A stretch of 54,624 bases of DNA. It comes from a virus. Lineage: Duplodnaviria > Caudoviricetes. Below the pieces are notes generated by a model. That model searched no databases. It worked only from the letters and a program-made list of their open reading frames with translations, and was not told the origin of the DNA. The stretch spans positions 1 through 54,624 of IMG/VR virus record IMGVR_UViG_3300020042_003419, one strand, 5' to 3'. Each line of letters opens with the position of its first letter. Positions within the stretch are counted from its first letter, which is position 1. Shown here piece after piece: positions 1 to 53,751 of the stretch. The translations under genes were made by a program, and so were the position numbers.

Positions 1-121
1 GAAAAAGAAAAGCTGGAAGAAGAAAAAGCTCGACTAACTACTCTTGCTGCCAAAGGTGGTAAAGAAGGTAGCGCTGCTCAGAAACAATTAGACGCATATA
101 CAGACGTTGAGGCTAGAGAGA
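1..121. repeat. Terminal direct repeat / circular overlap (copy 1)
   Basis: 1-121 equals 54504-54624 except G81 vs A54584; the reading frame runs across the junction. Confidence 0.95.
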
Positions 122-615
122 GTAAACGAAAAAAACCTGATAAACCTGATGAAGAAAAAACACCTTCATTGGGAGCAATTAATTCTTTTGTTAGAGATGC
201 CGGTGCTCGTGCTGTAATTTTTGCTCATGGTCGAGGTAATAACAATATTTCTAAAATGACGCTGCCAGATGGAACTATTTCAGCAGAGTATAACGGTGAT
301 CCGACATCAGAAATTGCTAGGCAAGTTGAAGAAACTCGTCGCACTGCAGCACTAAGAGCGTTGTCTTTCTTCCCTGCCAATGACCGTAACGTTCAAGCTA
401 TTTTAAAATCATATGATCCTGTCACTCCTGCTGCGCCACAACCGCAACCTGTACCAACACCTAAGCCAGCACTTCCAGTAATATCTCCTAAACCTGTTGC
501 TGGTAGCTCTCCAGTTGATCAAGAACGCGCTAAAGCTTTGAGTGCTATTAATGCAGGTGCTGATCAAGCAGCGGTAAAGAAACGGTTTAAAGAAACTACA
601 GGACAGGACTTGTAA
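1..615 (+). CDS. 3' part of an internal virion protein gene that starts at 53754 and wraps the contig ends (~454 aa if joined)
   Basis: Frame 1 is open from base 1 (EKEKLEEEKARL...) and in frame with ATG 53754 through the overlap; Pro-rich linker near the C-terminus; the listed TTG start at 169 is an edge artefact. Confidence 0.8.
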   Translation, partial: EKEKLEEEKARLTTLAAKGGKEGSAAQKQLDAYTDVEARESKRKKPDKPDEEKTPSLGAINSFVRDAGARAVIFAHGRGNNNISKMTLPDGTISAEYNGDPTSEIARQVEETRRTAALRALSFFPANDRNVQAILKSYDPVTPAAPQPQPVPTPKPALPVISPKPVAGSSPVDQERAKALSAINAGADQAAVKKRFKETTGQDL

Positions 616-618
616 AAT

Positions 619-3600
619 ATGGCAGACTATTCCGATCTGATTCCTGCAACATCAGGCTATGATGATTTAATTCCTGCTAAGCCTGTTGCTGCCGCAATGA
701 CCGCAATGCCAGTCAACACACCAACGTCCAGAGCACCCCAAAAACCACCCGCTGCTGCCTCTGCTGAGCGACAGGCTGCTGAAGATGCACAGCCTAAATA
801 TAGCTATGAAGATCTGTACAAGAACGATGACTTGTACAACATCATCAAAGACTATTCTAAGGTGGCAATGAAGAAAGAGCCAGAACCAAACCAATCACGG
901 CAAGAGTTTGTTAATGACTTCATGTCAAAGATGCGCGGCATTGAGTTTAATGCCATCTTAGATACAGTTCCTGAGTTGAATAAGATGCGTAATGCTAAGC
1001 CAGAAGATGCTGTAAAGATGGCACTGGCTCAAAAGGTTTACGAAAGAACAGCACCTGCTTATTCAGCAGAAGGTCAACCCGGCATACGTCCATATTTTGA
1101 TGCCATTAAAGCCATTGCTACAGACCCCTCAAACTACATTGGTTTTGGTCTTGGTGCTGTAGGTAAGAAACTTGTGGTTGGTGCTGCTAAGAAAGAAGCA
1201 TTGGCATTGGCTGCGGGTACTGCTACTGAAACTATAGCAAAATCTAAGCTGGCTCAACTGGCAACTAAAGCTGCGTTACCAACGGCTGGCAAAGGCATTG
1301 CTGCTGGCACCATTGCTGAAAGCAGTGTTGCTGTTGGTCAGAATGTAATGTCTCAAAAGCTTGGACAACAAACAGCACGGGCGCTGGGTGAAGAAGTTCC
1401 TGAACTGGACAACACGCAATTGGCAGTGGCTGCTTTGTTTGGTGCTGTTGGTGGCTTTGCAGAAGCTCGTGCAGTTATGAAAGCTAAGCCGGGTAAGACA
1501 GGTACTGAACAATTACAAGAATTAATTCAAGAAAAAAACATTGTTCCTAAAGATCCTCTTGCTCCAGCAACAAAGGTTGAGCGTACATTGCTTGATCCTG
1601 TCACTGAGAACATGGATACTATTGTTGATGAATTCAATAAAACTCAAGGCCAAAAGATATTGGATGAGATCTCTCCAATCACACCACTAGCAGAGGCAGG
1701 TATTCAACGTGATCTAAGCGCTCGCGCCATTAGGGTTGCAATGCATATCATTGATCAAGACCCTGCTTTCAGATTGAAACCAAATCAGAAAACTAGCTCT
1801 GCCATTAACGAAGTATTTGCAAACTTAGACACTGGTGGAATCAGTGATGCTTTGCTTGAACAAGCCATTCGTAAAGAAGGACTAACACCACAAGAGTTTG
1901 CACAAGCTAACAAGATGACGGTGACACAAGCTGCTCAGGTTATGCAGCAATACTCTGCTGCTTCTCGTTTGTTGGGCAAGCTAACACAGATTGACCCAGA
2001 AGCCAAGAAGCTTGTTGATAGTTTGTTTGCTAAGCCTGATGATATTCCTAATGCAATGGGTTGGGTTGGCAAAGCCATCTCTTCCGTTGAGCGTGAATCT
2101 AAAGCATGGATGGTTAGTGGTGTTGCTACCACTGTTCGTAACGTTATTGGTACCAGCATTGGTCTTACTTACAACTCCGCTGCTTCATTGGTTGAAGGAA
2201 GTTTGTACACAATTGGCAAAACAATAGGTAGCGCTTCTACAGGAATGCGTGTTGAAACGTTCAAGCGAGGCATGGGCGACACCATCAAAGACACATTCAA
2301 TGTGTATGGGTTGCTATACAGGCAAGGATTGGCTGAAGCAGCCACTGACACCATGCTTAAATATAATCCAGCAATTAACAATGCTTTATTTAGCGCAACA
2401 CAAGAAGGTTCCACTAAAGAAATATCTAAAGTTGGACAGTTGTTCAACACATTGAATGTGGTGCAAGACAGCTTCTTCCGTAAAGCAATCTTCACAGCTT
2501 CAGTAGACAAACACATGCGCCGTGCTGGTCTTGATATGTATCAGACCATTGGTGAAGGTAAGGTTATCCCTGCTGATATTTTAAAGAAATCTACTGATGA
2601 AGCACTGAAGGCTACGTTCTCGTATATGCCTAAGCAAACCAGAGAATCTGGCTTTGAAGCTGGTGCAGAAAGCGCAGCTAACTTAATTGTCAAAGGAATG
2701 GAATATCCCGGCCTAAGTTTGGTTGCTCCGTTTGCTCGTTTCATGTCTAATGCCATTGCTTTCCAATACCGCTATAGCGTGTTTGGCGCAACCTCTGGTG
2801 CATCTGACATACTGCAAGGTGGGTTGTTGAAGAGTGCTGGTAAAGAAGGCGGTGACTACCTTGTTCGTCAAGGCACTGAGAACTTGTCTAAAGGTATTGT
2901 TGGCACTGCTGTATTGGCATATGCCTATGACTATCGGCTAAACAATCAAGACAGTGAATGGTTTAACTACAAGCAAGACGATGGCACCACTACCGATCTA
3001 CGTGCATTGTTTCCAGCAGGGCCAGTGTTGGCTGTTGCTGACTTCATGGCTAAGCGTAAACTTGGTTTGGAACCAAAGACTGCTCAACTAACTGAAGCCA
3101 TCATTGGTATGAAGATGCCAGCCGGTACGCAGAACGTGTTGCTTGATCAAGTGTTTGCTGCATTCTCTTCTGAGAAAGATGCTGACAAAATTGATGTGAT
3201 GATTGGTAAAGTTCTTGGTGACTTCACTACTCGTTTTACTCAACCATTTCTTGTTAAGAATGCTTACGACTTCTTAGATCTGTTCCGTGAAGAAGGTAGC
3301 ATTCAGCGTGATCCCAATGTAATTGTTAGTGATGACAAAATCACTGAAGCAGCAATGAACCGTATTCAGAAGCGCATCCCAATTGCTAAAGAAGACTTAC
3401 CCGCATATCAACCATACACCCGCGAAGGCCCTGTATATCAAGAAGGTGAGTTCTTTGCCAATCTTATTGGTGTTAGACAGGTGCCAGAGAAGAGTGTACA
3501 AGAACGTGAGATTGTTCGCTTAGGTATTGAGCCATACAAACTATATGGTGGCGCAACTGGCGACAAAGAATATGACCGTAAGTTTGTTGAACTAGCAAAC

Positions 3601-5835
3601 CCTATGGTTACTAAGTTCATAGATAGGGCTATGGCTAGTGAACGTTATAAAGCATTGTCTCTTCCTGAGCAAAAGATTGCACTGGCTAATACTGTTAAGG
3701 GTGCCACTGAAGTTGCTCGGGCAAATACAGAAGCAGAATTTAGTATTAATGATATTAATAAAATCTATAAGATGAAGTTTGATAAGCTTCCTGCAGATAA
3801 GCGAGGCATTATCAATGATCGTTATGCTAAAGATAACGAAGGAAAATCATTAGAAGAAGCTAAAGACTACAAGGCTGTTTACAAGTATGAAGCAATGCTT
3901 GGTAATCTACAGTTTAACGTTGGTGGTTTTGTTGCTAAAGGATTGACGAAGCTGGCTAAGGGTGTTCCAGACATTGCTAAAACTGCGGCAACTAAAGCAA
4001 CAAAGACATTGGACAATACAGAAATTGATCAGTTAGTAAACAAAGCCATTGACGATGCTATTGGTGCAAAGGCCAGCCCTGTTGTTGATCAAATGGCAAA
4101 GGTGTTGACAAAGAAGCCAGTAATGCCTAAGAAGCCCGTAGAGCCTCCATCACTGGAAGCAGCTACCCCTGTACCAGCACCAGCAACAAAGGCCCCTGAA
4201 GACCCGTTAGAACAGGTTGGTGAGGTATTGACACCGCCACCACCTAAGAAGGATGGGCTTGACGCGCTGTTTTCGTTGTATAACGAACTCTATCCAAGCA
4301 AGCCTGTTACCACAACGGCTCGACCCTTCACTGAAGAAGCCTATACAAAAGGCAAGGCTGACTTGATTGACACCTTTGGTGCTAAAGAAGTTGAGAAAAT
4401 GATCAAGAATGATCCAAAAGATTATGCAAACATGTTGCACATCTATGCTGGTGATACGCTTGGATTGAAGAAGGGTAAGGGATTGCCACCGCTGCCTTAT
4501 GAAGTTGCTGACACTGCCATTGTTAAATACGATGACATGGGCAACCCTATTCCTATTGGACAGATTGAAAAGAAAACGGCAGGTAATGTTGTCCCGGAAC
4601 AAGAAGTGCAATACAGCGGTGAATACTTAACTGGTGATTTTGATAATAAAACTTTGAAGAATAAAGCAACTCGGGAAAGACAAAACATATTATCTGAAAT
4701 TAAAGATGCTCGTAAAAGGTCTTTCAACGATCTTAAAAAGAATAAGATGATGGAGGCTATTGATGGTGATGTTGTTGCTGTGGCTCAAGGAGATTTCAGG
4801 TTTAAACTAAAACGTGAAGCTGACCCAAACAATGATAAAGATGTTGCTGCGTTTGCAGACATAGCTAATTCTTTGCAGAAGAAGTATGACACTCTTAAAG
4901 AGAGGTACAAAGACAAACCACCTATTAAACTTTTCCACGGCAACTATGATGTTGAAGATATTAAAACTACAGGCTTCACCGATCCTCAAAAGTTTTATAC
5001 TACTGGTCATTCAGAGTTGAGAATTGGCGGCCCGTCCTTTACTAAAGACACTGGACTTGGCGTACAAGGTAAACGTTTTGGAGGTGAAAATCCAGAAAAT
5101 TATCTCTACACAGAAATGCCGTATGCTGATTATATGTTTAAACGAATAAACATGCCATTGACTGAATATAACTCGAGAGACATGAACCTTATTGCTAGAA
5201 CAATAACAGGTTCTCTTGACACTGTTCGCCCTTTGTCACTACCTCGTGCTGGTTTCAGTGAAACAGAAGATGTGATTGTTGAAGCAGAAAAGCTTGTAAC
5301 ACAGGGCAAAGGTAAGATGCGTCTTAAACCCGCCACTGAAGAGTTGACTAAACCAATTCGTGAAGGTGGTAAGGGTAGGTTGCAGACAACTCTTGATCGC
5401 AGAGAAAAGTTTACAAATGATAGAGAGTTGTTGCGCGACTACATGACTCTAGTCAATGACGATACATCATCATTAAGAGATCGTAGAAAAACAGCATATC
5501 TAACTTATGATTTAATTAAAACAATATCCAATGATTTGTTAGGTGCTGCTGAATCTGTGTCAGTTGGCAAAGGTCTTGGTCACACGTATCAAACTGATAT
5601 GACTCGTTTCGCTAATCAAATATCATCAACCAATAAAATTGAATCAGTTATCAAAGTTCTTGATGATATGGGTGCTGTTCAAAAGGCGTCAACGTTAAGA
5701 AAAGTCAAGGATGAACTTGTTGGTTTGGCTAACATATCTGATAATAGTCCTGACAAGAATACAATCAAAGCTCTTAATCAAACCAGAGAAGCTGCACGTA
5801 AACTAGCTAAGGGTGGCTTTGTAAGCAGACGATAG
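619..5835 (+). CDS. Large internal virion (ejection) protein, 1738 aa, with C-terminal ADP-ribosyltransferase-like region
   Basis: Last and largest gene of the structural arm; Ala/Gly-rich hydrophobic stretches in the N-terminal part; Pro-rich linker; LFHG...PSFTKD...ETE motifs at aa ~1438-1550. Confidence 0.7.
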   Translation: MADYSDLIPATSGYDDLIPAKPVAAAMTAMPVNTPTSRAPQKPPAAASAERQAAEDAQPKYSYEDLYKNDDLYNIIKDYSKVAMKKEPEPNQSRQEFVNDFMSKMRGIEFNAILDTVPELNKMRNAKPEDAVKMALAQKVYERTAPAYSAEGQPGIRPYFDAIKAIATDPSNYIGFGLGAVGKKLVVGAAKKEALALAAGTATETIAKSKLAQLATKAALPTAGKGIAAGTIAESSVAVGQNVMSQKLGQQTARALGEEVPELDNTQLAVAALFGAVGGFAEARAVMKAKPGKTGTEQLQELIQEKNIVPKDPLAPATKVERTLLDPVTENMDTIVDEFNKTQGQKILDEISPITPLAEAGIQRDLSARAIRVAMHIIDQDPAFRLKPNQKTSSAINEVFANLDTGGISDALLEQAIRKEGLTPQEFAQANKMTVTQAAQVMQQYSAASRLLGKLTQIDPEAKKLVDSLFAKPDDIPNAMGWVGKAISSVERESKAWMVSGVATTVRNVIGTSIGLTYNSAASLVEGSLYTIGKTIGSASTGMRVETFKRGMGDTIKDTFNVYGLLYRQGLAEAATDTMLKYNPAINNALFSATQEGSTKEISKVGQLFNTLNVVQDSFFRKAIFTASVDKHMRRAGLDMYQTIGEGKVIPADILKKSTDEALKATFSYMPKQTRESGFEAGAESAANLIVKGMEYPGLSLVAPFARFMSNAIAFQYRYSVFGATSGASDILQGGLLKSAGKEGGDYLVRQGTENLSKGIVGTAVLAYAYDYRLNNQDSEWFNYKQDDGTTTDLRALFPAGPVLAVADFMAKRKLGLEPKTAQLTEAIIGMKMPAGTQNVLLDQVFAAFSSEKDADKIDVMIGKVLGDFTTRFTQPFLVKNAYDFLDLFREEGSIQRDPNVIVSDDKITEAAMNRIQKRIPIAKEDLPAYQPYTREGPVYQEGEFFANLIGVRQVPEKSVQEREIVRLGIEPYKLYGGATGDKEYDRKFVELANPMVTKFIDRAMASERYKALSLPEQKIALANTVKGATEVARANTEAEFSINDINKIYKMKFDKLPADKRGIINDRYAKDNEGKSLEEAKDYKAVYKYEAMLGNLQFNVGGFVAKGLTKLAKGVPDIAKTAATKATKTLDNTEIDQLVNKAIDDAIGAKASPVVDQMAKVLTKKPVMPKKPVEPPSLEAATPVPAPATKAPEDPLEQVGEVLTPPPPKKDGLDALFSLYNELYPSKPVTTTARPFTEEAYTKGKADLIDTFGAKEVEKMIKNDPKDYANMLHIYAGDTLGLKKGKGLPPLPYEVADTAIVKYDDMGNPIPIGQIEKKTAGNVVPEQEVQYSGEYLTGDFDNKTLKNKATRERQNILSEIKDARKRSFNDLKKNKMMEAIDGDVVAVAQGDFRFKLKREADPNNDKDVAAFADIANSLQKKYDTLKERYKDKPPIKLFHGNYDVEDIKTTGFTDPQKFYTTGHSELRIGGPSFTKDTGLGVQGKRFGGENPENYLYTEMPYADYMFKRINMPLTEYNSRDMNLIARTITGSLDTVRPLSLPRAGFSETEDVIVEAEKLVTQGKGKMRLKPATEELTKPIREGGKGRLQTTLDRREKFTNDRELLRDYMTLVNDDTSSLRDRRKTAYLTYDLIKTISNDLLGAAESVSVGKGLGHTYQTDMTRFANQISSTNKIESVIKVLDDMGAVQKASTLRKVKDELVGLANISDNSPDKNTIKALNQTREAARKLAKGGFVSRR

Positions 5836-9027: not shown

Positions 9028-9336
9028 CTAACGATTGTCGCCAGAGCCGCCGATAACCTCACGTTCTTTACGACTATGTAGCTTTTCAAGATTGTATGTA
9101 CAGATTTCCGACAAAGTAAGATCAAAGTCAGAAGCTACAGCAGCCACCATCCACATCACATCACCAAGTTCTTTCTTAATATCTTGCTGTAAAACAAAAT
9201 GATTACCACCATCCCTGATGTGCTTAGCCACTTTGCCCAACACCTCACCAGCTTCTGCTGCAAGATTGAGTAGGGCATAAGCTTCATCGGCTGACTCTGT
9301 ACGAAACTCCATTGCTCGTTGTTGATAGTTGTCCAT
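9028..9336 (-). CDS. MazG-like nucleotide pyrophosphohydrolase
   Basis: EAGEV...KKELGDVMW...NLEKL..R...GSGDNR signature. Confidence 0.9.
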   Translation of the reverse strand: MDNYQQRAMEFRTESADEAYALLNLAAEAGEVLGKVAKHIRDGGNHFVLQQDIKKELGDVMWMVAAVASDFDLTLSEICTYNLEKLHSRKEREVIGGSGDNR

Positions 9337-10229
9337 TAGAATAAATCTTTCCGTAGTTCTTTAACTTTTGCTGTTGTATAGTGGCTTAATGTTTTAAAAT
9401 TAATTGTCGGGTTCTTAAAGTCCTTTACCATTGTCCAAGCATCTTCACGAATCAAATCGTAAAACACTGTATTAATAAGTTGAGGAATGTTCTTACTAGA
9501 CCATCCTCCCGTATCATTAATAATCTTTGCAACCACCTTATCAACTAAGGATGATGTAACAAACTTATTAACAATTTTCTCTTCAACGATTTCACAACCG
9601 ATAAGAGGTGCTCCCATTTCTTTATGATGACCATCTTTGAATTCGTTAGTTACTATCTTAGCCCACGTAACTCGACCATACCTGTTTGCGTAGTCATAGT
9701 TCTTGATGACAATTCCTTCACCAACACCCTCGCCATCCTTAATTAAGAACGTGTTCTTTTCAAGGCATTTCGTAAACACATCAATGTCACCATTCTTGAC
9801 GATGGCAATTGGGGCTAGGTAGTTAAGACTATACGCTTTAAGTTTTTCTTCATACCTATCGAAAGGAATGAACCTTTGCGTAATGGTATTGAACACATCA
9901 AACACGTAGAACTTTCGCCAAGCAGTGTCAACATAAGTCTTCAACGTGTGTGGCACAAGCCACTCGCCATACAAAATATGATAGGGATGTTCAAGCAAGT
10001 AAGCACCAACTTGTTTATCTGTCAGCATAGCAGCATAGAAGCCAGCATTATCAGCCTCAAGCGATAGCTCCCTGTTGCGACTACCTGCCTTGATCGAATA
10101 GTCTTCTGCTGCCCATACACTGGCATTGGTGCCGTCAAGCTTAGGGAACACATAAGTAGTTCCAACTTCAATGGATTCCACTTCAGTGTTACCAAACTTC
10201 TCAAGGTGTGGATATTTTAGAAAGCTCAT
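9336..10229 (-). CDS. RNA ligase (Rnl2-like nucleotidyltransferase)
   Basis: KLDGTN (motif I), YGEW, FYVFDV, EGIVIK, WAKIV. Confidence 0.85.
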   Translation of the reverse strand: MSFLKYPHLEKFGNTEVESIEVGTTYVFPKLDGTNASVWAAEDYSIKAGSRNRELSLEADNAGFYAAMLTDKQVGAYLLEHPYHILYGEWLVPHTLKTYVDTAWRKFYVFDVFNTITQRFIPFDRYEEKLKAYSLNYLAPIAIVKNGDIDVFTKCLEKNTFLIKDGEGVGEGIVIKNYDYANRYGRVTWAKIVTNEFKDGHHKEMGAPLIGCEIVEEKIVNKFVTSSLVDKVVAKIINDTGGWSSKNIPQLINTVFYDLIREDAWTMVKDFKNPTINFKTLSHYTTAKVKELRKDLF

Positions 10230-10232
10230 AAG

Positions 10233-10391
10233 TTATTTCTTTCTACCTACAAGGGTGGCTGCAATAAAGAAAGTAAATATAGCAACTGAGGGAATATAGA
10301 TTGGCATCAAAACAAACCACCAACTCCAATCAATAATTAAAGTTAATTTAAGTGCAATAAATAATATTGCAAGCAATCCTAAAAATGTCAT
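10233..10391 (-). CDS. Small membrane protein (52 aa), absent from the ORF track
   Basis: MTFLGLLAILFIALKLTLIIDWSWWFVLMPIYIP...; LKL...IDWSWW..L.P pattern common in phage membrane proteins; ATGA overlap with the HNH gene. Confidence 0.75.
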   Translation of the reverse strand: MTFLGLLAILFIALKLTLIIDWSWWFVLMPIYIPSVAIFTFFIAATLVGRKK

Positions 10392-10762
10392 TTCTTTTTC
10401 TTCATTAATTTTTCTTCTGCCGTCTTTTCTTTATGGCAGGGCTTACACAAAATCTGTAGGTTTTCTAATTCGCAAAAAAGATTGTCTATGTAAACATCCC
10501 AACTTATAAATCCTTTGACGGGATCTACAACAGGGATGATATGATCGACCTGTACATCTGTAGCTACAAAATGTTTGTTACAACCAACACATTTATAATG
10601 CATTGCAAGCTTTCCAGTTTTACTGTTGGCCTTGCGACCAACAAAAGATTCTTTCATTGCTTTAAACTTTACAGGCCATCTACGTGAAGCGGCCCGTAGT
10701 GCTGATGTAACAAAACTTCTGAATCTAGCTTCTGTCCATTCTCCACTATTTCTCATTCTCAA
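10388..10762 (-). CDS. HNH endonuclease
   Basis: CxxC...VDHIIPV...NLQILCKPCH. Confidence 0.85.
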   Translation of the reverse strand: MRMRNSGEWTEARFRSFVTSALRAASRRWPVKFKAMKESFVGRKANSKTGKLAMHYKCVGCNKHFVATDVQVDHIIPVVDPVKGFISWDVYIDNLFCELENLQILCKPCHKEKTAEEKLMKKKK

Positions 10763-17483: not shown

Positions 17484-18157
17484 GGAAAGAAAGCTTTCAT
17501 TGTTGTTGGTGCCACATCACGCAATACAGATAACACCTGTGTGGCAAGGAGGCGGTGTTCTTTTTGTGTGCTTGCATGCAATCGCGCCTTCAAATAAAAG
17601 ATCCAACTACGCATGGTGCCACTCATATACAAGCGAGAAGTGGTGAGTCCCTCTGGCAGCACAGCCCTTGCTTGCTCTTTAGCAATGCCATTCTTGATTG
17701 ACCAATTATATGCATAGCTGGCAATGTCTATGACAGTTTGTTGTATCTCTTCCCATTCATAATTTAAAGCAGGGTTGTCGCTGACAACAGAAGCTTGTCG
17801 ATTCTTTGTGTCTTGCAAGCGACATTCACGCAACGGTGCAGCATCAAGCAGATCGGTGGTGGCATAGCGTTGTGAAAACTCTTGGAAGTAGAACGACTTA
17901 TGCCGCAATATTTGACGCCCAATGTCGCGGGTTGTATTAATTTCAAGACAAACATTAGCCATGTCAAATGGACTAACATGTCCTTCTTCCATGCAATAAT
18001 AAAGTAGTCGAGGATTTTCACTGGCCTGATTAGATGGATTACTAACCCGTGCCATAAACATAATTTGTTTATCAATGTCTGGTGTTGCCCATTGTATTTT
18101 TACATTTGTCATCAGTTGATCTTCTTTCATCTTTCGTTTACTATTAAAACCAGTCAC
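17480..18157 (-). CDS. thyX: FAD-dependent thymidylate synthase
   Basis: GHVSPF, RQILRHKSFYFQEFSQRY (RHx8SxR), AKEQARAVLP, TQKEH. Confidence 0.95.
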   Translation of the reverse strand: MTGFNSKRKMKEDQLMTNVKIQWATPDIDKQIMFMARVSNPSNQASENPRLLYYCMEEGHVSPFDMANVCLEINTTRDIGRQILRHKSFYFQEFSQRYATTDLLDAAPLRECRLQDTKNRQASVVSDNPALNYEWEEIQQTVIDIASYAYNWSIKNGIAKEQARAVLPEGLTTSRLYMSGTMRSWIFYLKARLHASTQKEHRLLATQVLSVLRDVAPTTMKAFFP

Positions 18158-19242
18158 ACAATGCCTCGCATAGTTTGAGCAAGGGTGCTGCTAACAAGAG
18201 TTGCTTTCATGTACGGCGTAAGGCTTTGGGGCGTAGCATGACCAGACAGTGCCATGATGTTGGGCAATGGTACACCAGCCTCCACCAGTTCCGTGATGGC
18301 AGTGCGGCGCAAGTCCATTAGCTTCAATTCTTTTGGTAAGTTCGCTTCACGCATAATTGTTTTGCCAACTCTTCCAAGGTTTATTAAAGTGTATGGTAAC
18401 AGACCACCCTTACGATCTTCTTGCGCTGATGGTGCAATGTATCGCTGCCAACCATAGTCTTTGTATTGCTGCCTAAGCATGCTTTGCAAATCCTCGGATG
18501 TTGGCAAAGACACCCTCGCCCTACGCTTGCTTTGCGTCAATGTTAACACACCAGTGTCAAGATTGTACATGTCCCATGTCAATGTTCGCATGTCACCTAA
18601 GCGCTGCCCCCATTCGTGTGCCATGTATACGATGAGGCCAACACTACGTTTATTAAATGTTGCAAACGACACATCCATAAATGCTTTTAAATCGTCTTTG
18701 CTCCACACAACACGGCGAGGTTTGTCTTGCATGCGTAGTATTTTGCCAAAGGGATTGAACGTGATGTAGCCTAGCCTGATTGCAAAGTTAAATACAAGTT
18801 TGTACACAGACACGCAATGGTTTGCTAACGACACACTGCTTGCAGCATACTCGTTGTACAACCGCTGACACATTGGTGCTGTAATGTTGCACAATATTGT
18901 TGACATGATGGGAGTGCTGCCTAGCTTACTGCCGTCCCAGAAGTTTAGATAATAAACATAATCCTTTCTGCTCTTTTCAGACAGCTTAGCATAGGAATCA
19001 GTGGCTAAGTAGGCACGGATTAAATCTGCAACAGTGGCTTTGGTGGTTAAGTTAGCTAAGTATTTTTTGTCACTACGCCAGTCATCATATGCAGCGTTAA
19101 GCTTTGCCGCCTGTGCCACCATATCAGTGTAGTTGTTGCTAAGGTTGTGACGTGTAACGACACCAGCCTCAACTGCTGATGATGGTGGGTTGTAGCGATA
19201 GCCGTTGCCCTTTCGCATAACATAGCGCGGTAGAGTTTTCAT
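18154..19242 (-). CDS. Tyrosine recombinase/integrase
   Basis: GQRLGD (R), SKR (K), MDLRRT, SGH and Tyr near the C-terminus; probable start ATG 19242 (ORF open to 19287). Confidence 0.9.
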   Translation of the reverse strand: MKTLPRYVMRKGNGYRYNPPSSAVEAGVVTRHNLSNNYTDMVAQAAKLNAAYDDWRSDKKYLANLTTKATVADLIRAYLATDSYAKLSEKSRKDYVYYLNFWDGSKLGSTPIMSTILCNITAPMCQRLYNEYAASSVSLANHCVSVYKLVFNFAIRLGYITFNPFGKILRMQDKPRRVVWSKDDLKAFMDVSFATFNKRSVGLIVYMAHEWGQRLGDMRTLTWDMYNLDTGVLTLTQSKRRARVSLPTSEDLQSMLRQQYKDYGWQRYIAPSAQEDRKGGLLPYTLINLGRVGKTIMREANLPKELKLMDLRRTAITELVEAGVPLPNIMALSGHATPQSLTPYMKATLVSSTLAQTMRGIV

Positions 19243-19315
19243 TTTGTAAAAACAATTAGGGTTAAAATGAAGTAGATAATCTCCCAAAGGGAAATTGAAT
19301 CATCATAAATGATAG

Positions 19316-19552
19316 TCATGTGTTCTTACTCCGTAATGCGGCTTCAATCATGGATGCAAATTCCTGTGGCCCCATTCGTTTGTAATACGTGTCGTGTATC
19401 TCTTGCACTTCTTTCTGCGTCAGCCCTACCCACGGGCGTTGATCTGGGCTATTTGCAAGAGATTTAAAAAAATCATTGTCCACCGGACGCTGCTCTGGCT
19501 GTGCTGCGGGTGGGGTGGGGCACATCTGCAATGCTTCGTCTTTAGTCATCAT
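19316..19552 (-). CDS. Hypothetical protein
   Basis: PPAAQP...RPWVGLT...FA..IEAALRSKNT pattern seen in small phage proteins; ATGA overlap. Confidence 0.7.
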   Translation of the reverse strand: MMTKDEALQMCPTPPAAQPEQRPVDNDFFKSLANSPDQRPWVGLTQKEVQEIHDTYYKRMGPQEFASMIEAALRSKNT

Positions 19553-20382
19553 GCACCATTCTTATAAAGATTAACCGTCATATCAACAATATCATTATGC
19601 TTATACAACACATCAAGCCACCGCTTAGGTATGTTGCCATATCCATACAACCTGCCAGCAATCATACCAGCCACTGCACCAACTGTATCGGCATCACCAC
19701 CTTTGTTTACGGCATGCACCACAGCATCTTCAAAGCATGATGTGGCAAGCACAGACTCCCATGCTGATCCATAGCAACCCATGACAGATGTGTCAGGCTT
19801 ACCATGAGCAAGCCTCATAAGCACATCGTCAGGCTTAGCAGTGCCACTGTGCAACTCAAGGGCAAGCTGTGATGTATAACGCACTGTTTGACTTGTGCCA
19901 TGTGTCATCAATGCAATTGCTACGCTCTGCCCAATAGCTTGTGCCATGTTGCCATGATTGGCAATGATGATGGGGGCCAGTCGCATGATGGAGCCATTAC
20001 CGTTTGACATGTATGCAATGGAGCCAGCATAGGGGTGCTTGGCGTCAAACTTAGAACGGCTTAGCGCATCACGGGTGTTGTTGCCAATGTCAAACACATG
20101 GTCACGGGTTCCAAAGTCGCCATAGTTTGCCCAGCTTTGGAAGTTGCGAGCAATGGCAACAGGTGCAAAGTCTCCTCCATATCCTACGTATGCATCGGCA
20201 ATGCACATCATCATGGCTGTGTCATCTGTCCATTCTCCGGGGGATGTGTTATGCACACCACCACCAACCATTTCAGTTAGCTGTTCATTGGCAGCAGACG
20301 GGCCACAGAACTCCAAAGGTGCGCCAAGTGCGTCACCCACAGCACCGCCAATAAACATTCCTAAAGCTTCATCGTATGTCAT
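19549..20382 (-). CDS. ADP-ribosylglycohydrolase (DraG/ARH family)
   Basis: GDALGAP, WTDDT, DIG, GNGSIMRLAP, TH, GGDADTVGAVAG. Confidence 0.95.
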   Translation of the reverse strand: MTYDEALGMFIGGAVGDALGAPLEFCGPSAANEQLTEMVGGGVHNTSPGEWTDDTAMMMCIADAYVGYGGDFAPVAIARNFQSWANYGDFGTRDHVFDIGNNTRDALSRSKFDAKHPYAGSIAYMSNGNGSIMRLAPIIIANHGNMAQAIGQSVAIALMTHGTSQTVRYTSQLALELHSGTAKPDDVLMRLAHGKPDTSVMGCYGSAWESVLATSCFEDAVVHAVNKGGDADTVGAVAGMIAGRLYGYGNIPKRWLDVLYKHNDIVDMTVNLYKNGA

Positions 20383-20399
20383 ATTTTTCCTTTTAAGGT

Positions 20400-20466
20400 G
20401 AGGGTACTCGCTGCACTGGATTGATCTGTGCTAGTAACGGCGCACCCCAGCATCTGCTTTCCCCTC
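20400..20466 (-). ncRNA. Putative structured RNA with loop-E/sarcin-ricin-type internal loop
   Basis: Minus strand: GAGGG/CCCUC stem, GAAA opposite GAGUA, further GC/GC, UGC/GCA and UGG/CCA helices, GUGC/GCAC hairpin. Confidence 0.6.
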
Positions 20467-20473
20467 GTAAACA

Positions 20474-21313
20474 TTACGCTGCAATAGCGTCTGCAATGTC
20501 CCACAGTTCTGCATTGATACGGACGTGTTCCTTGATGGATGACACATTACGTGCCTTCCGCAGATGCCCTTCAGGATGTGACGGGTTCAAGCTCTTAACG
20601 AATGCATTGCCACGGATGACACCTTCCTGAATGCGGTTGAACACAGTGAAGGCATCCATGTAGTTGTCTTGCCACCGTGTAGGTGTCAGCACATTGGTGA
20701 CGGTGTGGTCAGTGGCAAACACACCTTTTGTTTGTCCATCATACATGTCCCAACGTGTTTGCACACTACGGCGAGCAACATCACGGGCATCCTCAACGGT
20801 GAGGGTGATGCCACGCAGTCGTTCCATACGCTCCATCAACGATGGCAATGTGGCAACGGTGGTGTTGAGCATTTCTTCAAAGCCTGACAGCGCTTTGCTG
20901 TGATACACACGGCTTTGGAAGCCTTCGCCAGCAATGATGCCGTTGCTGCAAATGAACCGGAAACAACCAGCGAATAGCTTCACGCTGCCAGTGCCATCAT
21001 GGCTGTTGTACAAGATGATCTCAGGACGGATGCCGGTGCCATCGTCACCGTTCATGGGCTTGGCAAAGGCAACCATGTGGCTTGCATGGTCAGCAGCACC
21101 AGCAATACGGCTACGCTTTTGTGCTGCTTGCACAGGCTCATATCCATAGTCTGCCAACACAGGGATGATGTCGCTAGTATGCAACGACACATACCTATCT
21201 GTCAGGCGGTCTGCCTTGGTTGTGCTGTACACGGCAGGTGCCAATTGCTTGATACGCTCTGCTGTCAGGGCTGTGTTGTTAACATTGCGAGAGAAGATTA
21301 CATGGTTTGCCAT
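20474..21313 (-). CDS. DUF932-family protein
   Basis: AP.V......RY...T, PEIILYNSHDG.GS..L.AG.FR.ICSNG, FNRIQE, N.ELW; start 21313 after AAGGA. Confidence 0.85.
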   Translation of the reverse strand: MANHVIFSRNVNNTALTAERIKQLAPAVYSTTKADRLTDRYVSLHTSDIIPVLADYGYEPVQAAQKRSRIAGAADHASHMVAFAKPMNGDDGTGIRPEIILYNSHDGTGSVKLFAGCFRFICSNGIIAGEGFQSRVYHSKALSGFEEMLNTTVATLPSLMERMERLRGITLTVEDARDVARRSVQTRWDMYDGQTKGVFATDHTVTNVLTPTRWQDNYMDAFTVFNRIQEGVIRGNAFVKSLNPSHPEGHLRKARNVSSIKEHVRINAELWDIADAIAA

Positions 21314-21351
21314 GATGTGTTTCCTTAGTGGAAGTTGTTGAGGAGGGCCAG

Positions 21352-21380
21352 ATTGTGCCAACTTTAAAAGTGTTTGTCAA
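21352..21380 (-). promoter_or_regulatory. sigma70-type promoter
   Basis: TTGACA-N17-CACAAT upstream of the DUF932 gene. Confidence 0.7.
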
Positions 21381-21413
21381 ACGATGGCAATAATTCTTGA
21401 CTAGTTTGCGGGG

Positions 21414-21638
21414 TTATTGCGGTGCTTTGAGAGGCACTACGGGGGTTGCTGCGCTGAAGTGGATGATGCCCTCAAAGCCAGCGGCCTTGCCTATGGTGAT
21501 ACACAGGCTGTACATGCCATCAACGTGATCAAAGTAGTAAGGCACGTTATCAAATTCAAAATAGCTTTCGCGGGGCAGGTTGTACAGCTTCTGTACTGGC
21601 AAGCGTTCAAAGTCTGCAAGATCGTGTTCATTTAGCAT
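21414..21638 (-). CDS. Hypothetical early protein
   Basis: Start MLNEHD after AAGG; FDHVDGMYSLC motif. Confidence 0.65.
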   Translation of the reverse strand: MLNEHDLADFERLPVQKLYNLPRESYFEFDNVPYYFDHVDGMYSLCITIGKAAGFEGIIHFSAATPVVPLKAPQ

Positions 21639-21810
21639 AGTTTGCGTACCTTTCATTGTGTTGTTGCTTCTGCAACCATGCCTCAAACTCGCCAGCATGC
21701 TTGCCTATCTTGTATTGTTGTGCATCTTCTGCGTTGTCCCACCATTGCGACTTATCGCAAGGCAGGTCTGCATACCCATCGGCAAAGCCTTGTTGGTACG
21801 GGGTTGTCAT
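21628..21810 (-). CDS. Hypothetical early protein (weakly Rmf-like YxxG pattern)
   Basis: YQQGFADG...YKIG; TGATG overlap with the upstream gene. Confidence 0.6.
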   Translation of the reverse strand: MTTPYQQGFADGYADLPCDKSQWWDNAEDAQQYKIGKHAGEFEAWLQKQQHNERYANYAK

Positions 21811-22076
21811 CAGTACATCACAGCACGTTGACCTTCAACGGCAATAGACACGATGGTGTCACGGTTGACGTTACGATATGCCTTCTTCTGCATATCATAC
21901 ACAGTGATGTATTGTTGTGCGTTGTTGGTGCTATCACCACTCTTCAGTGCCTTGGTAACACCTAAGCGGCAGTTCATAGCACGGGCAGTGCCAGCCTTGG
22001 TGATGAAGGTGACGGTGACGAACTTGCCAGCACTGGTGGCGAGCAAGTTAGCAAAGGCGTTTGAAATGGTTTTCAT
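21810..22076 (-). CDS. Small beta-barrel (SH3-like) phage protein
   Basis: F.TVTF.TK.G..R.MN.RLGV...VYD..K..YR.VN pattern; AAGGA SD. Confidence 0.65.
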   Translation of the reverse strand: MKTISNAFANLLATSAGKFVTVTFITKAGTARAMNCRLGVTKALKSGDSTNNAQQYITVYDMQKKAYRNVNRDTIVSIAVEGQRAVMY

Positions 22077-22143
22077 GTGTGTCCTTGAAAGCTTGGGAAT
22101 ATTCCCTCAATGCAACCACGTTGGTAGCTGCATTGGGTGACGA

Positions 22144-22356
22144 TTACCGTAGGCTGTGCAAACGATCTAGCATGGCATCACGCTCACACCACAGCTTGAC
22201 TGCGTAGGGCGTCATCGGCACCATCGTAGTGCTGTCGGCCTGTAGCGGTAGTGTGGCGTCAATGTCGGCAATGGCTGCTTTGCATTGTGCTTTGTCGTAC
22301 TGCTTTGCCTTGGTGGCATACAGCTTAGACATGTCGGTGTAGGAGAGGGGTGGCAT
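22144..22356 (-). CDS. Hypothetical early protein
   Basis: AAGGA SD directly downstream of a promoter cassette. Confidence 0.65.
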   Translation of the reverse strand: MPPLSYTDMSKLYATKAKQYDKAQCKAAIADIDATLPLQADSTTMVPMTPYAVKLWCERDAMLDRLHSLR

Positions 22357-22399
22357 GTGTGTCCTTCAGAACGGTGCAGCGAAATTGCTGCTGGGTTGC

Positions 22400-22429
22400 A
22401 TTGTAAGAGCAATTGAATGCCCTTGTCAA
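22400..22429 (-). promoter_or_regulatory. sigma70-type early promoter (repeated cassette)
   Basis: TTGACA-N18-TACAAT, near-identical to 25849-25878. Confidence 0.8.
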
Positions 22430-22440
22430 CTGTGGGGTTA

Positions 22441-22749
22441 TTAAAGCAGTTCGACTGGTACATCTACTTCGTCGCCTAGCTTGCTTGCAACGTAGCAGCG
22501 CATGGCTGCAATCAGGGGTGTGATGCCTGTTGCACCAAATGCAATGTCAGCGGATAGATCATAAGAAGCAAACCATATTCCCTGATCGTCGCACTCAATG
22601 CCAATCTTCTCACGCTCAATAATCGGCCCACCTAAGAGCCAGTCCGTCGAGTAGGGCAGACCCATACCTCCAACTTTGAGGGGTTCGTCACCCTCACAGA
22701 ACGCCACCGCCGAATCAAGGTCATTTTCTGTCAGTTCACATGGATTCAT
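22441..22749 (-). CDS. DUF2591/NinX-like protein
   Basis: YSTDW..GGPIIERE.I...G.TPLIAAMRCYVASKLG. Confidence 0.8.
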   Translation of the reverse strand: MNPCELTENDLDSAVAFCEGDEPLKVGGMGLPYSTDWLLGGPIIEREKIGIECDDQGIWFASYDLSADIAFGATGITPLIAAMRCYVASKLGDEVDVPVELL

Positions 22750-22943
22750 TTCAATTCTCCAATCATGTAAGCGGTTTGGTTTGCAATGTCAGGTGTGATG
22801 ATGAATGGCACATCAAAGTCGGTCATGTTCTCCATGAACTCCCGCGCTTTGACCCTCGATGTGAATGACGCAACGTATCGCCCTGCATAATAAACCTTGT
22901 ATGTCCAGCGTTTCTTTTTCATAACATTTTCCTTATTTAACAA
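22746..22943 (-). CDS. Hypothetical early protein
   Basis: Packed ORF; start more likely 22922 after AAGGA. Confidence 0.6.
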   Translation of the reverse strand: MLNKENVMKKKRWTYKVYYAGRYVASFTSRVKAREFMENMTDFDVPFIITPDIANQTAYMIGELK

Positions 22944-23205
22944 TGGATTGAAACCTGTCGTAGCCCCTGATTTTGCTGTCGTTGTTGCTCACCTTCTCCC
23001 TGAACACAACGCTGTACTCTGCCTCACGCAGTGCCTCGACCACTAGCATCAGGTCACAGTCTTCCTCTAGGTATACGTTGTCACGTAGCTGGTAGCTGTA
23101 GCTGCTAATCAGGTGCTCAACGCTTAGTTCAAGCAACACCTCCCGTTTAACCTTGCCCCATGCATGTCCTGAGTCGCTGTATACAGTGATGGTAAATTTC
23201 TTCAT
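22933..23205 (-). CDS. Hypothetical phage protein
   Basis: SD.GH.W..V...IS.YSY.....VYLEEDCD pattern. Confidence 0.7.
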   Translation of the reverse strand: MKKFTITVYSDSGHAWGKVKREVLLELSVEHLISSYSYQLRDNVYLEEDCDLMLVVEALREAEYSVVFREKVSNNDSKIRGYDRFQSIVK

Positions 23206-23570
23206 GATAATGCGCCTTTAATGTCCGATAGTTGTGATGCCAGTGAATATGCTTCAGTGTATGCCATGTCGCTGTTTGTGTTAAATCGTCCTTGCTCGAT
23301 GTAGTTTCCTGCCAACCCGTTTAATGTTGACACAATCAAGTCGGTGCCATGTTCGTTTTTCACTGTAGTGATGCGAACATTAGTGCCAAAGTATATGTGC
23401 CGTTGCTTGCTTATATGTGTCATGCTGTATTTACTTGCTCGCTTGTTTGCATCTGCCTCATCATCATAAACTGCCATGTTTCGCCAATCATCAAAGTCTA
23501 CCCTGTAGCGTTGCAACATGTAGCAACCATCGAGGGGGATGACACGGACAATGGTTTCATCATCATACAT
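23202..23570 (-). CDS. Hypothetical early protein
   Basis: Start MYDDE after AAGGA; ATGA overlap with the next gene. Confidence 0.65.
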   Translation of the reverse strand: MYDDETIVRVIPLDGCYMLQRYRVDFDDWRNMAVYDDEADANKRASKYSMTHISKQRHIYFGTNVRITTVKNEHGTDLIVSTLNGLAGNYIEQGRFNTNSDMAYTEAYSLASQLSDIKGALS

Positions 23571-23913: not shown

Positions 23914-23925
23914 AATTGTTTTCTT

Positions 23926-24300: not shown

Positions 24301-24301
24301 G

Positions 24302-24487: not shown

Positions 24488-24500
24488 AACGTGTTTCCTT

Positions 24501-24758: not shown

Positions 24759-24771
24759 GGTGTGTTTCCTT

Positions 24772-27800: not shown

Positions 27801-27869
27801 TTTGTTGTATAACTAATACATTGTTTGTTTGAAGAATTAAGTTCTTCTATTTGTTTAATGAAAGAAAAT

Positions 27870-28427
27870 ATGGCTACATCTGATATTGCTACTAAAGCTG
27901 CTAAGTTCCGTGAAATGGCAAAGGACAAAGCATTGCCACAAGACGTTCGTAACGCCTATCTTGACAAAGCTAACAAGCTTGAAGAGAAGACAATGAAGCC
28001 TACAATGGCTATGGGTGGTATGGTTAAGATGGCTGTGGGTGGTATGGTTAAGCCTTTGAATCCTTTGCAAGCAAAGAGACAAGAACAAAAGGCAATGATG
28101 ATTAAAGACCGTTTAGCCACTAAAGCAGCCAATCAAGCCGCTAAAGCACCTTTTCCTAATAACATGGGCGGCATGGGCGGTATGGGCGGTAGTGGTGGTA
28201 AGGGTGGTGGCATGGCTACTGGTGGCATGGTTGGTGGTAGTGCTAATGGCAGTGATAACCGTTTCGCTATGGGTGGCACGGTTGGCGGCAGTGCTAATGG
28301 CAGCGACAATAACTTTGCCAAAGGTGGCATGGCTAAGAAGCCAGCAATGATGAACTATGGCGGCATGGCAATGAAAAAGCCAATGATGGCTAAGGGCGGT
28401 GCTGTTAAAAAAGCTAAGTCTAAATAA
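27870..28427 (+). CDS. Basic Met/Gly-rich protein with seven xxxGG tag repeats
   Basis: Probable start MATSD; MAMGGMV, MAVGGMV, MATGGMV, FAMGGTV, FAKGGM, MNYGGM, MAKGGAV. Confidence 0.75.
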   Translation: MATSDIATKAAKFREMAKDKALPQDVRNAYLDKANKLEEKTMKPTMAMGGMVKMAVGGMVKPLNPLQAKRQEQKAMMIKDRLATKAANQAAKAPFPNNMGGMGGMGGSGGKGGGMATGGMVGGSANGSDNRFAMGGTVGGSANGSDNNFAKGGMAKKPAMMNYGGMAMKKPMMAKGGAVKKAKSK

Positions 28428-48481: not shown

Positions 48482-48783
48482 GTGTTATACCGTCCTCTGT
48501 TGATGTTATTGGAAGAAAATATACAATAGAGTATGATGACTCTTTGAAAGGTTTTCTTGGATCATGCGATTCAAACACTTTAAAGATTTTAGTATTTCCG
48601 GGACAAGTTAAGTCAATGGAACTTGATACTGTGTTACATGAAGTGGTTCATGCTATTGAACTTGCAATGCAATTAAACATGTCTGAACGGCAAGTCTATT
48701 GCACCACTGTTGGTTTGTTATCGGTGCTTAAAGGTAACCCACAATTTTTAGAATATTTGAATAAGGCAATTAATAATGAGTGA
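48478..48783 (+). CDS. Small HExxH metallopeptidase-like protein
   Basis: DTVLHEVVHAI...E. Confidence 0.7.
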   Translation: MSVIPSSVDVIGRKYTIEYDDSLKGFLGSCDSNTLKILVFPGQVKSMELDTVLHEVVHAIELAMQLNMSERQVYCTTVGLLSVLKGNPQFLEYLNKAINNE

Positions 48784-48964
48784 AAATTTTACAGCCAAAC
48801 AACGAGAAGTAATAGCTCGTAAAATAGGATACGATGGCCCTATGCAAATGTTTGATAAATATCTAGCATCATCTCCTTCTGACGCTGCTCGTTTTGCTGG
48901 TATTACTACTAAGCAAATGGCTAAGGGTGGTGTTGTTAAGAAATTTGTTGGGAGAAATGTATGA
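48776..48964 (+). CDS. Small protein ending near a MAKGGVV tag
   Basis: 62 aa; overlaps both neighbours. Confidence 0.65.
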   Translation: MSENFTAKQREVIARKIGYDGPMQMFDKYLASSPSDAARFAGITTKQMAKGGVVKKFVGRNV

Positions 48965-53238: not shown

Positions 53239-53751
53239 ATGGCAACAAAGCAACTACCCGTTAGTCAAGCATTAATGTCAGTACCTGCTGGCATTTCGTG
53301 GACAGCCCCTGATAAAAGTAGGAATTGGCAAAAACCTCCTAAGCTAGTAAAAGTAAACGATGTTGTTAAATATTATATGGCAGCAATTTCTTCTGAAGAA
53401 ATGGCTAGTGATGTGCTGGATGTATTAGAAACAAACATACCTTTATCAGTTATTGCTGAGAGCATGATGCTTTCCAATGTTAGTGAAGGTCTTCATACTA
53501 TTGATACTGGTATTTTAGTAATGCCTGTAATGATGGAGATGTTAAAGGCTATTGCAATGCTTAATGACATTGATACAAAAGACTATGCATCGGATTATGA
53601 TAAAGACGAAAAAGTATCTAATCGAGTAATCAAACAAGCTATCGCACAAGTGTTCAAAACAATTGAAACTTCATCTGAAGAAACATCCCCCACTAAAGAA
53701 GCTGAACCAGTTGGTGGGTTAATGTCACGTAAGACTAAAGGAACTATTTAA
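53239..53751 (+). CDS. Conserved virion-associated protein
   Basis: P.G.S.T......WQ.PP, EGLHTID; ends GGLMSRK. Confidence 0.7.
   Translation: MATKQLPVSQALMSVPAGISWTAPDKSRNWQKPPKLVKVNDVVKYYMAAISSEEMASDVLDVLETNIPLSVIAESMMLSNVSEGLHTIDTGILVMPVMMEMLKAIAMLNDIDTKDYASDYDKDEKVSNRVIKQAIAQVFKTIETSSEETSPTKEAEPVGGLMSRKTKGTI

Follow-up and report, generated by a model that had tools for sequence, protein, structure and literature searches.

This report concerns a whole virus record of 54,624 bp (IMG/VR record IMGVR_UViG_3300020042_003419), here called the window, meaning the whole stretch of DNA that was analysed, and in particular the giant protein encoded by the last gene of its late arm. The window has the layout of an HMO-2011-type podophage, and phages of this type are among the most abundant phage groups of marine and fresh waters. 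Its leftward arm encodes DUF932, an ADP-ribosylglycohydrolase (ARH), an integrase, ThyX, primase/helicase, DNA polymerase, exonuclease, RNA ligase, MazG and ribonucleotide reductase. The rightward late arm encodes terminase, portal, capsid, tail and holin/endolysin functions and then open reading frames (ORFs) of 1098, 170, about 495 and 1738 amino acids (aa); the late arm of HMO-2011 closes in matching order with gp25 (706 aa), gp24 (164), gp23 (502) and gp22 (1128). The last ~640 aa of the 1738-aa protein form a self-contained module that includes a predicted ADP-ribosyltransferase (ART) domain, and the ARH of the leftward arm is a candidate eraser of its mark. The giant protein is divided as follows, AF2 standing for AlphaFold2.

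619..5835, plus strand: giant last gene of the late arm, a single ORF of 1738 aa (P0001), presumed internal virion or ejection protein.
619..3912, plus strand: N-module, aa 1-1098, common to HMO-2011 gp22 (1128 aa) and the CRP roseophages.
3913..3933, plus strand: tag 1, FNVGGFV, aa 1099-1105, a motif that closes modules and reads aromatic-A/N-x-G-G-hydrophobic-V; separate C-module genes begin exactly there.
3934..4608, plus strand: variable Pro-rich linker, aa 1106-1330, seen in the translation and of low conservation.
4609..4899, plus strand: helical region before the ART core, aa 1331-1427, with helices at residues 21-99 of the AF2 model described below.
4900..5388, plus strand: predicted ART-fold domain, aa 1428-1590, from AF2, VIA-align, Foldseek and motif conservation.
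5389..5802, plus strand: predicted C-terminal helical bundle, aa 1591-1728 (AF2 helices 257-400), with generic helical-repeat matches only.
5803..5832, plus strand: tag 2, LAKGGFVSRR, aa 1729-1738, the C-terminus; separate C-module proteins end alike.

No Pfam or PHROG match was obtained for P0001, and tblastn aligned the closest isolates (HMO-2011, CRP-1, CRP-2, CRP-207 and MW202701) with aa 341-1051 only, at 21-25% identity. A first-pass annotation had proposed an ART-like segment from short motifs following a Pro-rich stretch after tag 1, and a script placed every one of these motifs as described in ORF 619-5835: KLFHG at aa 1437-1441 (H1440 codon nt 4936-4938), GPSFTKD at aa 1471-1477 (S1473 codon nt 5035-5037) and ETE at aa 1548-1550 (E1548 codon nt 5260-5262, E1550 codon nt 5266-5268). 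Homologs were collected by a word-indexed search with aa 1099-1738 and aligned with MAFFT (n=76, P0001 plus 75 others, nearly all of 1660-1900 aa). The conservation that the ART proposal called for proved near-invariant in this alignment: L1438, H1440 and G1441 are present in 76/76 sequences, S1473, F1474, T1475 and D1477 in 75/76 with one gap, E1548 and E1550 in 74/76 each, the two misses being gaps, T1549 in 68/76 and D1551 in 72/76. The GG of tag 1 is equally constant (76/76), as is that of tag 2 (74/76, two gaps). Within the C-terminal third, conservation is highest in the ART core (aa 1428-1560), where 31 of 133 columns reach at least 95%; the cores of the 76 sequences are about 47-52% identical to that of the window (median 52%). 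At the same level none of the 220 columns of the linker (aa 1111-1330) and none of the 85 columns of aa 1641-1725 is conserved, and median identity to homologs falls to 21% in the linker and 19% in the bundle.

An AF2 model of aa 1331-1738 (408 aa), built from a 54-sequence alignment, reached a predicted local distance difference test score (pLDDT) of 88.9 and a predicted template modelling score (pTM) of 0.84. Foldseek placed diphtheria toxin and tankyrases in the top rows when this model was compared with the PDB, with weak E-values (0.04-0.3). The whole model was also submitted to VIA-align, a Foldseek-independent search of 48,161 representative PDB chains with the top 50 rows listed; helical-repeat matches to the C-terminal bundle dominated (Z <= 9.3) and the result was uninformative for the ART core. 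Because the helical C-terminus had swamped the search, the domain aa 1428-1590 was refolded alone (pLDDT 87.4). With this domain model only 89 of the 48,161 chains reached Z >= 2, and the 50 listed are nearly all ART folds. The best match was diphtheria toxin (1dtp_A) with its homologs, at Z 6.9 and a root mean square deviation (rmsd) of 4.1 over 131-132 of 163 residues; further ART-fold matches were exotoxin A (Z 6.5), cholix, PARP1-4, tankyrases, Rhs/Tc ART toxins, Arr, pierisin and LT, as well as the RES toxins ParT (Z 5.7), Xre-RES (Z 5.6) and MbcT (Z 4.8), DarT (Z 4.9) and Tpt1 (Z 4.1-4.8, 80-86 aligned). Foldseek of the domain model returned 1dtp at E 2e-3, probability 1.00 and a template modelling (TM) score of 0.48. 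In the model, H1440-G1441 lie on the first strand (model strand 9-14), S1473-F-T1475 on the second (model 46-48), and E1550 opens strand 123-125 after the loop bearing E1548.

The confident model, the two structural searches and the motif positions (strand 1, strand 2, and the loop and start of strand 5) thus support the ART fold first proposed from the motifs. That aa 1428-1590 adopt a genuine ART fold we regard as very probable, and the fold call is strong because the match list is specific and the invariant residues are well placed. The domain is, on these models, a divergent member of the fold, since the structural scores are modest.

Those scores (best Z 6.9, TM about 0.5, rmsd 4-5.5 Å) head a set of observations that weigh against the interpretation. 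S1473 and E1550 would be the catalytic-position equivalents by spacing; spacing only is likewise the basis for choosing between S1473 and F1474 at the canonical strand-2 position, and for matching E1550 to the catalytic Glu. Sequence methods returned nothing: Pfam matched neither any of 29 full-length members (E <= 0.1-1) nor any of 12 isolated domains (E <= 10), NCBIfam and PHROGs held no match for the domain or the giant protein, PDB sequence (phmmer) and profile searches found no match to the domain, and the ESM Atlas feature search was empty. Membership of the ART-PolyVal family was considered and rejected, hhalign against the corresponding domain of Roseovarius Plymouth podovirus 1 (RPP1) giving a probability of 0.36% with only the strand-1 L-x-H-G aligned. 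Finally, the combination of H, S(F) and E-x-E fits cleanly neither of the H-Y-E and R-S-E classes.

A strand-1 His is typical of the diphtheria toxin/PARP class, and S-x-T together with E-x-E of the Arg-specific R-S-E class. The window family has His on strand 1 in 76/76 sequences, where the Alt/VIP2 (R-S-E) class has Arg. The His and Glu-like positions of the H-Y-E class are present, and the best structural matches fall in that class; the strand-2 motif is without Tyr, for which the invariant F1474 could substitute. The profile PF18760 (ART-PolyVal, cut-off 31.2 bits) matched none of 41 sequences (the 29 full-length proteins and 12 domains), the virion RNA polymerase (vRNAP) of RPP1 serving as positive control (36.5 bits, E 9.8e-9). 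Strand 2 reads S-F-T and strand 5 E-T-E-D in the window domain, different from the H-Y-D triad given for ART-PolyVal by Iyer et al. 2017 (PMC5512222).

The absence of Pfam, NCBIfam and PDB sequence matches leads us to describe the putative ART domain as a new, isolated sequence family. When 1.84 billion representative proteins were searched with a profile of the domain, 56 clusters matched at E <= 0.001 and 54 at E <= 1e-10, and all of the latter are the giant protein or its C-module. The two weakest matches, P0131 (2026 aa, E 2.6e-6) and P0132 (885 aa, E 1.4e-5), were set aside, the three motifs being missing; P0132 ends near a G-G-L-V peptide. A search confined to the literature that was accessible found no paper that describes this ART domain.

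Relatives followed at the DNA level indicate that the C-terminal part of the giant protein is a unit of its own. The DNA of 149 loci was surveyed (in viral contigs a query with one split-form protein matched nothing, whereas an alignment query succeeded), and removal of identical ART cores left 87 distinct cores with the full motif set and 4 loci without it. Fused ORFs account for 48 of the 87 and separate ORFs for 22, the other 17 being cut by a contig end, so that 70 are resolved. The separate C-module ORFs encode 533-666 aa, start at the tag and begin with M-G-[IL]-x-N-K, M-A-L-I-G-K or a TTG equivalent, and the matches of the representative search include proteins of 530-670 aa with a true Met start whose Met-Gly aligns exactly on G1102-G1103. 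Of the 20 split loci examined first, 18 yielded an upstream ORF of 1110-1180 aa; among five junction layouts, some upstream ORFs stop just before the tag position and others keep a tag of their own a few residues before the stop. Although the window gene is fused, its nearest relatives (56-61% identity) are split, so that the fused or split state has changed more than once. The gp22 of HMO-2011 comprises only the N-module, its end coinciding with the point at which tag 1 would start. Encoded in many relatives by a gene of their own that starts at tag 1, and missing from HMO-2011 gp22, the last ~640 aa are an autonomous, self-contained module; the first-pass view of this stretch as a unit is upheld by the 22 of 70 resolved loci and by HMO-2011.

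That annotation had further described the module as cargo bracketed by two tags. The tags are real and conserved, but they do not bracket the cargo: since HMO-2011 gp22 stops where tag 1 would begin, each tag ends a module, one the N-module and the other the cargo. Nor are they peculiar to the cargo, for copies of the motif stand at the end of, or within, at least four other late proteins:

48776..48964, plus strand: 62-aa ORF that stops 10 residues past an A-K-G-G-V-V tag; HMO-2011 gp25 and the proteins of relatives have this module and its tag as the N-terminal part of the large protein that comes next.
27825..28427, plus strand: 200-aa low-complexity Gly/Met/Lys-rich protein encoded where the late arm starts; it consists for the most part of A-x-G-G-M-V repeats, with at least five tag copies, one of them C-terminal.
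53239..53751, plus strand: 170-aa protein of the ejection block with a G-G-L-M-S-R-K-type tail; HMO-2011 gp24 ends similarly.
35737-37560, plus strand: 607-aa protein just after the portal gene, with an A-x-G-G tag near its N-terminus.

Judged by its arrangement in relatives, the split of the 62-aa ORF from the next large protein appears to be a second fission at a tag. Within the following ORF (48961-49575), positions 49078-49340 (plus strand) hold a 12-nt unit repeated 22 times (94% matches) that encodes (T-T-G-G)n, and 3' of the repeat the ORF reads as if out of frame. Slippage at the repeat or an assembly error may be the source of the 62/204/1098-aa split seen in the window, because relatives fuse the 62-aa module into one large protein. 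The 607-aa protein has a Hint/intein-like C-terminal domain that starts with a Cys, has H-N two residues short of the stop and gave weak matches to Intein_splicing and to intein models of NCBIfam; a long Gly/Ser/Ala-rich stretch precedes it, and the whole suggests self-cleavage.

In 61 loci, each 15 kb or longer, gene-strand ORFs totalling 270,244 aa contain 159 copies of the tag motif, against 6 in 239,868 aa from the other strand; these loci include duplicates, so that the strand ratio and not the counts is meaningful. Fifty-nine of the 159 matches lie within 20 aa of an ORF C-terminus. What the tags do can be read in two ways. They may be docking or loading peptides, or mere conserved module ends, the giant protein staying whole, and to this reading we assign a chance only a little short of even. 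A cut at the C-terminal copies would trim only a few residues, and the proximity of so many tags to a C-terminus makes a docking or loading role at least as likely as cutting. No prohead protease was detected among the ORFs of the window, the C-terminal helix of gp27 of cyanophage A4 docks into gp26 (PMC12002296), and the virion proteins of phiRIO-1 are described as unprocessed by Hardies et al. (PMC4819975). On the other side stand the genes that are repeatedly split at or just past the tag, and the tail protein pb2 of the siphophage T5, for which a cut was mapped after R1127 (Linares et al. 2023, PMC10038345). In the T5 record A-E-G-G-M-M follows R1127 directly, so that pb2 is cut immediately before A-x-G-G-hydrophobic-hydrophobic, the motif that ends modules in the window; the likeness is to a siphophage tail protein. 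This parallel makes cleavage at the tags plausible in the present phage group, where by analogy we consider it possible though rather doubtful. One candidate for a tag protease, a 101-aa H-E-x-x-H protein (48478-48783, plus strand, phrog_1233) encoded directly upstream of the 62-aa ORF and the ejection block, was dropped for want of any PDB, Pfam or NCBIfam match; from its motif it could conceivably be a small metallopeptidase.

Whether the module travels in the virion may be approached through cyanophage A4. Chain B of the A4 pre-ejectosome structure (9k3a), residues 1418-1607, matched the domain model at Z 4.4 over 108 aligned residues (VIA-align row 27). Its counterpart in Anabaena phage A-4L, gp27 (20116-25269, minus strand; 1717 aa), carries L-Y-H-G-T and G-T-Y-F-S at 1422-1452, which by sequence is a typical H-Y-type ART signature. 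It has no Pfam match and shows no similarity to the window family (hhalign probability 0.1-0.2%; a BLAST-level comparison was null). The A4 work assigns gp27 to the outer layer of the pre-ejectosome as packaged, its C-terminal helix docking into gp26; the paper covers architecture and DNA contacts, and its available text contains neither 'ADP-ribosyl' nor 'transferase' (PMC12002296). The A4/A-4L protein and the window protein are alike in length (1717 and 1738 aa), in the position of the ART fold (1418-1607 and 1428-1590) and in the helical C-terminus that follows, and A4 gp27 has been seen in situ inside the capsid. They differ in the strand-2 Tyr (G-T-Y-F-S) and the absence of visible A-x-G-G tags at the module borders of gp27. 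Two unrelated podophage proteins of about 1700 aa, one of them observed in the capsid, thus carry a modelled ART fold at the same relative place.

An N-terminal signal targets T4 Alt and brings about its trimming by the T4 prohead protease; in the window neither such a protease nor such a signal was seen. Strand 1 of Alt carries Arg in place of the His of the window domain. Alt is like the window proposal in being a head-packed ART that is injected with the DNA, and it modifies host proteins (PMC5512222, PMC9503650). Hardies et al. (PMC4819975) noted that domains destined for the cytoplasm are housed in internal virion proteins; that they left the HMO-2011 protein IVP-D unassigned counts against the interpretation. 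From synteny and the analogy with A4 gp27, we hold delivery of the module from the virion to be somewhat more likely than not.

Large late phage proteins with exchangeable enzymatic parts provide a further frame. Carriers of ART-PolyVal, among them the vRNAP of Roseovarius Plymouth podovirus 1, resemble the window in having an ART fold as a swappable C-terminal addition on a large late podophage protein, and a homolog 61% identical to the window protein is named 'Large polyvalent protein associated domain-containing protein' in UniProt. By size and late position the window protein fits the polyvalent proteins of Iyer et al. 2017. Polyvalent proteins unite several effector domains and often carry a processing peptidase, whereas in the window protein one enzyme-like domain was found, and Pfam found no peptidase domain in it or its homologs.

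The second component, the ARH, is encoded in the leftward arm between two regular neighbours:

19549..20382, minus strand: ARH, 277 aa (P0002), candidate eraser; PF03747 at E 1.6e-51, 176.1 bits (cut-off 26.2).
18154..19287, minus strand: tyrosine integrase downstream of the ARH; phrog_1 at E 3.3e-40, beside the ARH in 53/55 loci.
20474..21361, minus strand: DUF932 protein upstream of the ARH; PF06067 at E 2.2e-22, beside the ARH in 48/55 loci.

The PF03747 score, far above the cut-off, settles the identity that the first reading had given to 19549-20382. The best NCBIfam models were the Tri1 ADP-ribosylarginine hydrolase (NF041672, E 1.4e-50) and then DraG (TIGR02662, E 2.5e-37), and the protein is a member of neither equivalog, its scores being 172.1 against the 490 required for Tri1 and 128.6 against the 337 for DraG. 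It aligns with positions 67-239 of the 361-position Tri1 model and is missing the N-terminal part (first 66) of that model. Orthologs in relatives are 45-53% identical, and D17, D53, D54, D230, D232 and T233 are invariant in 15 of them, acidic and Thr columns that we take to be metal ligands. The DUF932-ARH-integrase block (the 55 loci include duplicates) suggests early or lysogenic expression, and a link to lysogeny fits as well as the 'early' role first supposed; the timed writer/eraser switch of that first reading would be conjectural.

Co-occurrence of ART and ARH was counted in IMG/VR records searched whole, 'complete' meaning 90% or more. Among 17 records selected by the ART, 15 have an ARH (PF03747), the two misses being 82% and 59% complete, and all 10 complete ones have it. 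In the reverse direction the best 80 of 371 ARH ortholog matches were used, and the 11 previously unexamined records of at least 36 kb among them all match the ART profile (6/6 of the complete ones). HMO-2011-proper records, chosen by similarity to gp22, have neither gene in 11/11 cases (7/7 complete), and HMO-2011, CRP-1, CRP-2, CRP-207 and MW202701, which have the N-module only, show no C-module match and are not among 46 phage records with an ARH match. Of 23 complete genomes, therefore, 16 have both genes, 7 have neither and none is discordant, and the window itself also has both. This concordance of every sufficiently complete relative (10/10 and 6/6) answers the co-occurrence check that had accompanied the pairing proposal, and it spans ART-module divergence down to about 30% identity.

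E-x-E is typical of Arg-specific protein ARTs, and its presence beside an Arg-type hydrolase suggests that the predicted chemistries agree. In Tre1-Tri1 of the type VI secretion system, in DraT-DraG and in the ART-ARG toxin-antitoxin of Aeromonas phages (PMC9503650), as in the window, a PF03747 hydrolase of the Arg type accompanies an ART. In those systems the two genes are adjacent, whereas in the window they lie 13.7 kb apart (5835 and 19549) on opposite strands, with 13-16 kb between them in relatives; they are thus not neighbours in one operon, as an adjacent toxin/immunity pair would be. The co-occurrence data, moreover, set one clade against another and may reflect a single ancestral event, because a single gain of both genes would yield the same table. 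The hydrolase may then be no partner of the phage ART, serving instead in counter-defence against host ARTs or as a DraG-like gene of host metabolism and sharing the clade by descent only. This alternative, which we hold to be a real if lesser possibility, would be at ease with the lack of linkage, with the fixed DUF932-ARH-integrase block and with the presence of ARHs in many unrelated phages (46 records). A DraG-like ARH was reported in five subgroup-I genomes, its role being called unclear (Qin et al. 2022, PMC9038755), the only report that a literature search on HMO-2011 and ADP-ribosyl found. The alternative is harder to reconcile with the zero discordant cases among 23 complete genomes at ART-module identities down to about 30%, and with the match of a predicted E-x-E ART to a Tri1/DraG-like ARH. 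That the hydrolase is a functional partner of the ART module we put forward tentatively, from gene content and sequence, at somewhat less than even odds.

Two further alternatives concern the ART domain itself. It could be a pseudo-enzyme that serves the pre-ejectosome as a non-catalytic structural element and is kept for packing against ejection proteins or DNA. In the packaged pre-ejectosome of A4 the equivalent region of gp27 is ordered, and the paper treats only architecture and DNA contacts (PMC12002296); the pseudo-PARP domains of TASOR and PARP13 are among the VIA-align matches, and the 408-aa model (pTM 0.84) has the ART core packed between helical parts. Yet the conserved residues fall at the presumed ART active-site positions (H-G of strand 1, S-F-T, E-x-E) and stay invariant, although identity in the flanking helices has dropped to about 20%; the basic machine can do without the module, as HMO-2011 shows by lacking it, and the module travels with an ARH that looks catalytically intact; we accordingly think a pseudo-enzyme unlikely. 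Equally improbable is an active NAD+-using enzyme that is not a protein ART, either an NADase or RES-like NAD+ phosphorylase or a nucleic-acid modifier such as DarT or Tpt1, for although the scores of ParT, Xre-RES, MbcT, DarT and Tpt1 come within about 1-3 Z of the best protein-modifying ARTs and the phage encodes an RNA ligase (9336-10229), the top matches are protein-modifying toxins, E-x-E belongs with Arg-specific protein ARTs, the co-travelling hydrolase is nearest to protein-Arg hydrolases and an NADase would need no eraser. On the predicted fold and its invariant residues, we judge it somewhat more likely than not that the ART domain is an active NAD+-using enzyme.

A few features of the record stand apart from these questions. 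The early arm holds the RNA ligase at 9336-10229 (minus strand, phrog_548) and an HNH endonuclease at 10388-10762 (minus strand), the ligase having no obvious partner, whether kinase-phosphatase or Tpt1. A Tpt1-like RNA-repair role, considered in connection with the ligase, was abandoned in view of the weak Tpt1 matches. The ORF that leaves the 3' end of the window (53754-54624, plus strand) and the one that enters at its 5' end (1-615, plus strand) would meet in different frames, and the record showed no terminal direct repeat, so that it is probably not an exact circular permutation at that point. A pattern scan of 185,579 species genomes confirmed no prophage copies.

Taken together, the data describe what we would call a new sequence family in a new arrangement within a known theme, that of ART cargo on phage ejection or polyvalent proteins. 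In the mechanism that we propose, a cargo consisting of a variable linker, a short helical region, an ART fold of 160 aa and a helical bundle would be carried on a conserved N-module of about 1100 aa. The giant protein would be packed in the capsid with the ejection apparatus and pass into the host together with the DNA, a route taken by T4 Alt and proposed for polyvalent proteins. The ART domain would then use NAD+ to ADP-ribosylate a host macromolecule, most likely on arginine because of the E-x-E motif and the resemblance of the paired hydrolase to Arg-specific enzymes. The hydrolase encoded beside the integrase would remove the same mark, limiting the modification once the phage program runs, or shielding the producing cell, or protecting lysogens from incoming kin. 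The A-x-G-G tags would mark the ends of the modules and might be cut or used for loading. For this overall reading, a self-contained ART cargo on an ejection protein with a Tri1/DraG-like eraser, we see the balance as even. A more ambitious version would have an aquatic temperate clade of the HMO-2011 type operate a two-part circuit of arginine ADP-ribosylation, with a capsid-delivered writer from a new ART sequence family (H / S-F-T / E-x-E) and an integrase-side, Tri1/DraG-like eraser that acts as antidote and as lysogen immunity against superinfecting kin, and would make A-x-G-G a general cut-or-load code shared with tape measures of the T5 pb2 type; this we consider improbable as a whole.

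For the phage family these results have several consequences. A new ART sequence family would be confined to 56 clusters in a library of 1.84 billion proteins, and the DraG-like hydrolase of these genomes would gain a candidate partner in an ART fold hidden in the largest late protein, where annotation pipelines have missed it. The natural splits at the A-x-G-G tag offer clean construct boundaries, and they provide independent data on the modularisation, loading or cutting of podophage ejection proteins. If the pairing is true, this phage group would present a testable case of a virion-delivered writer with an eraser encoded in trans.

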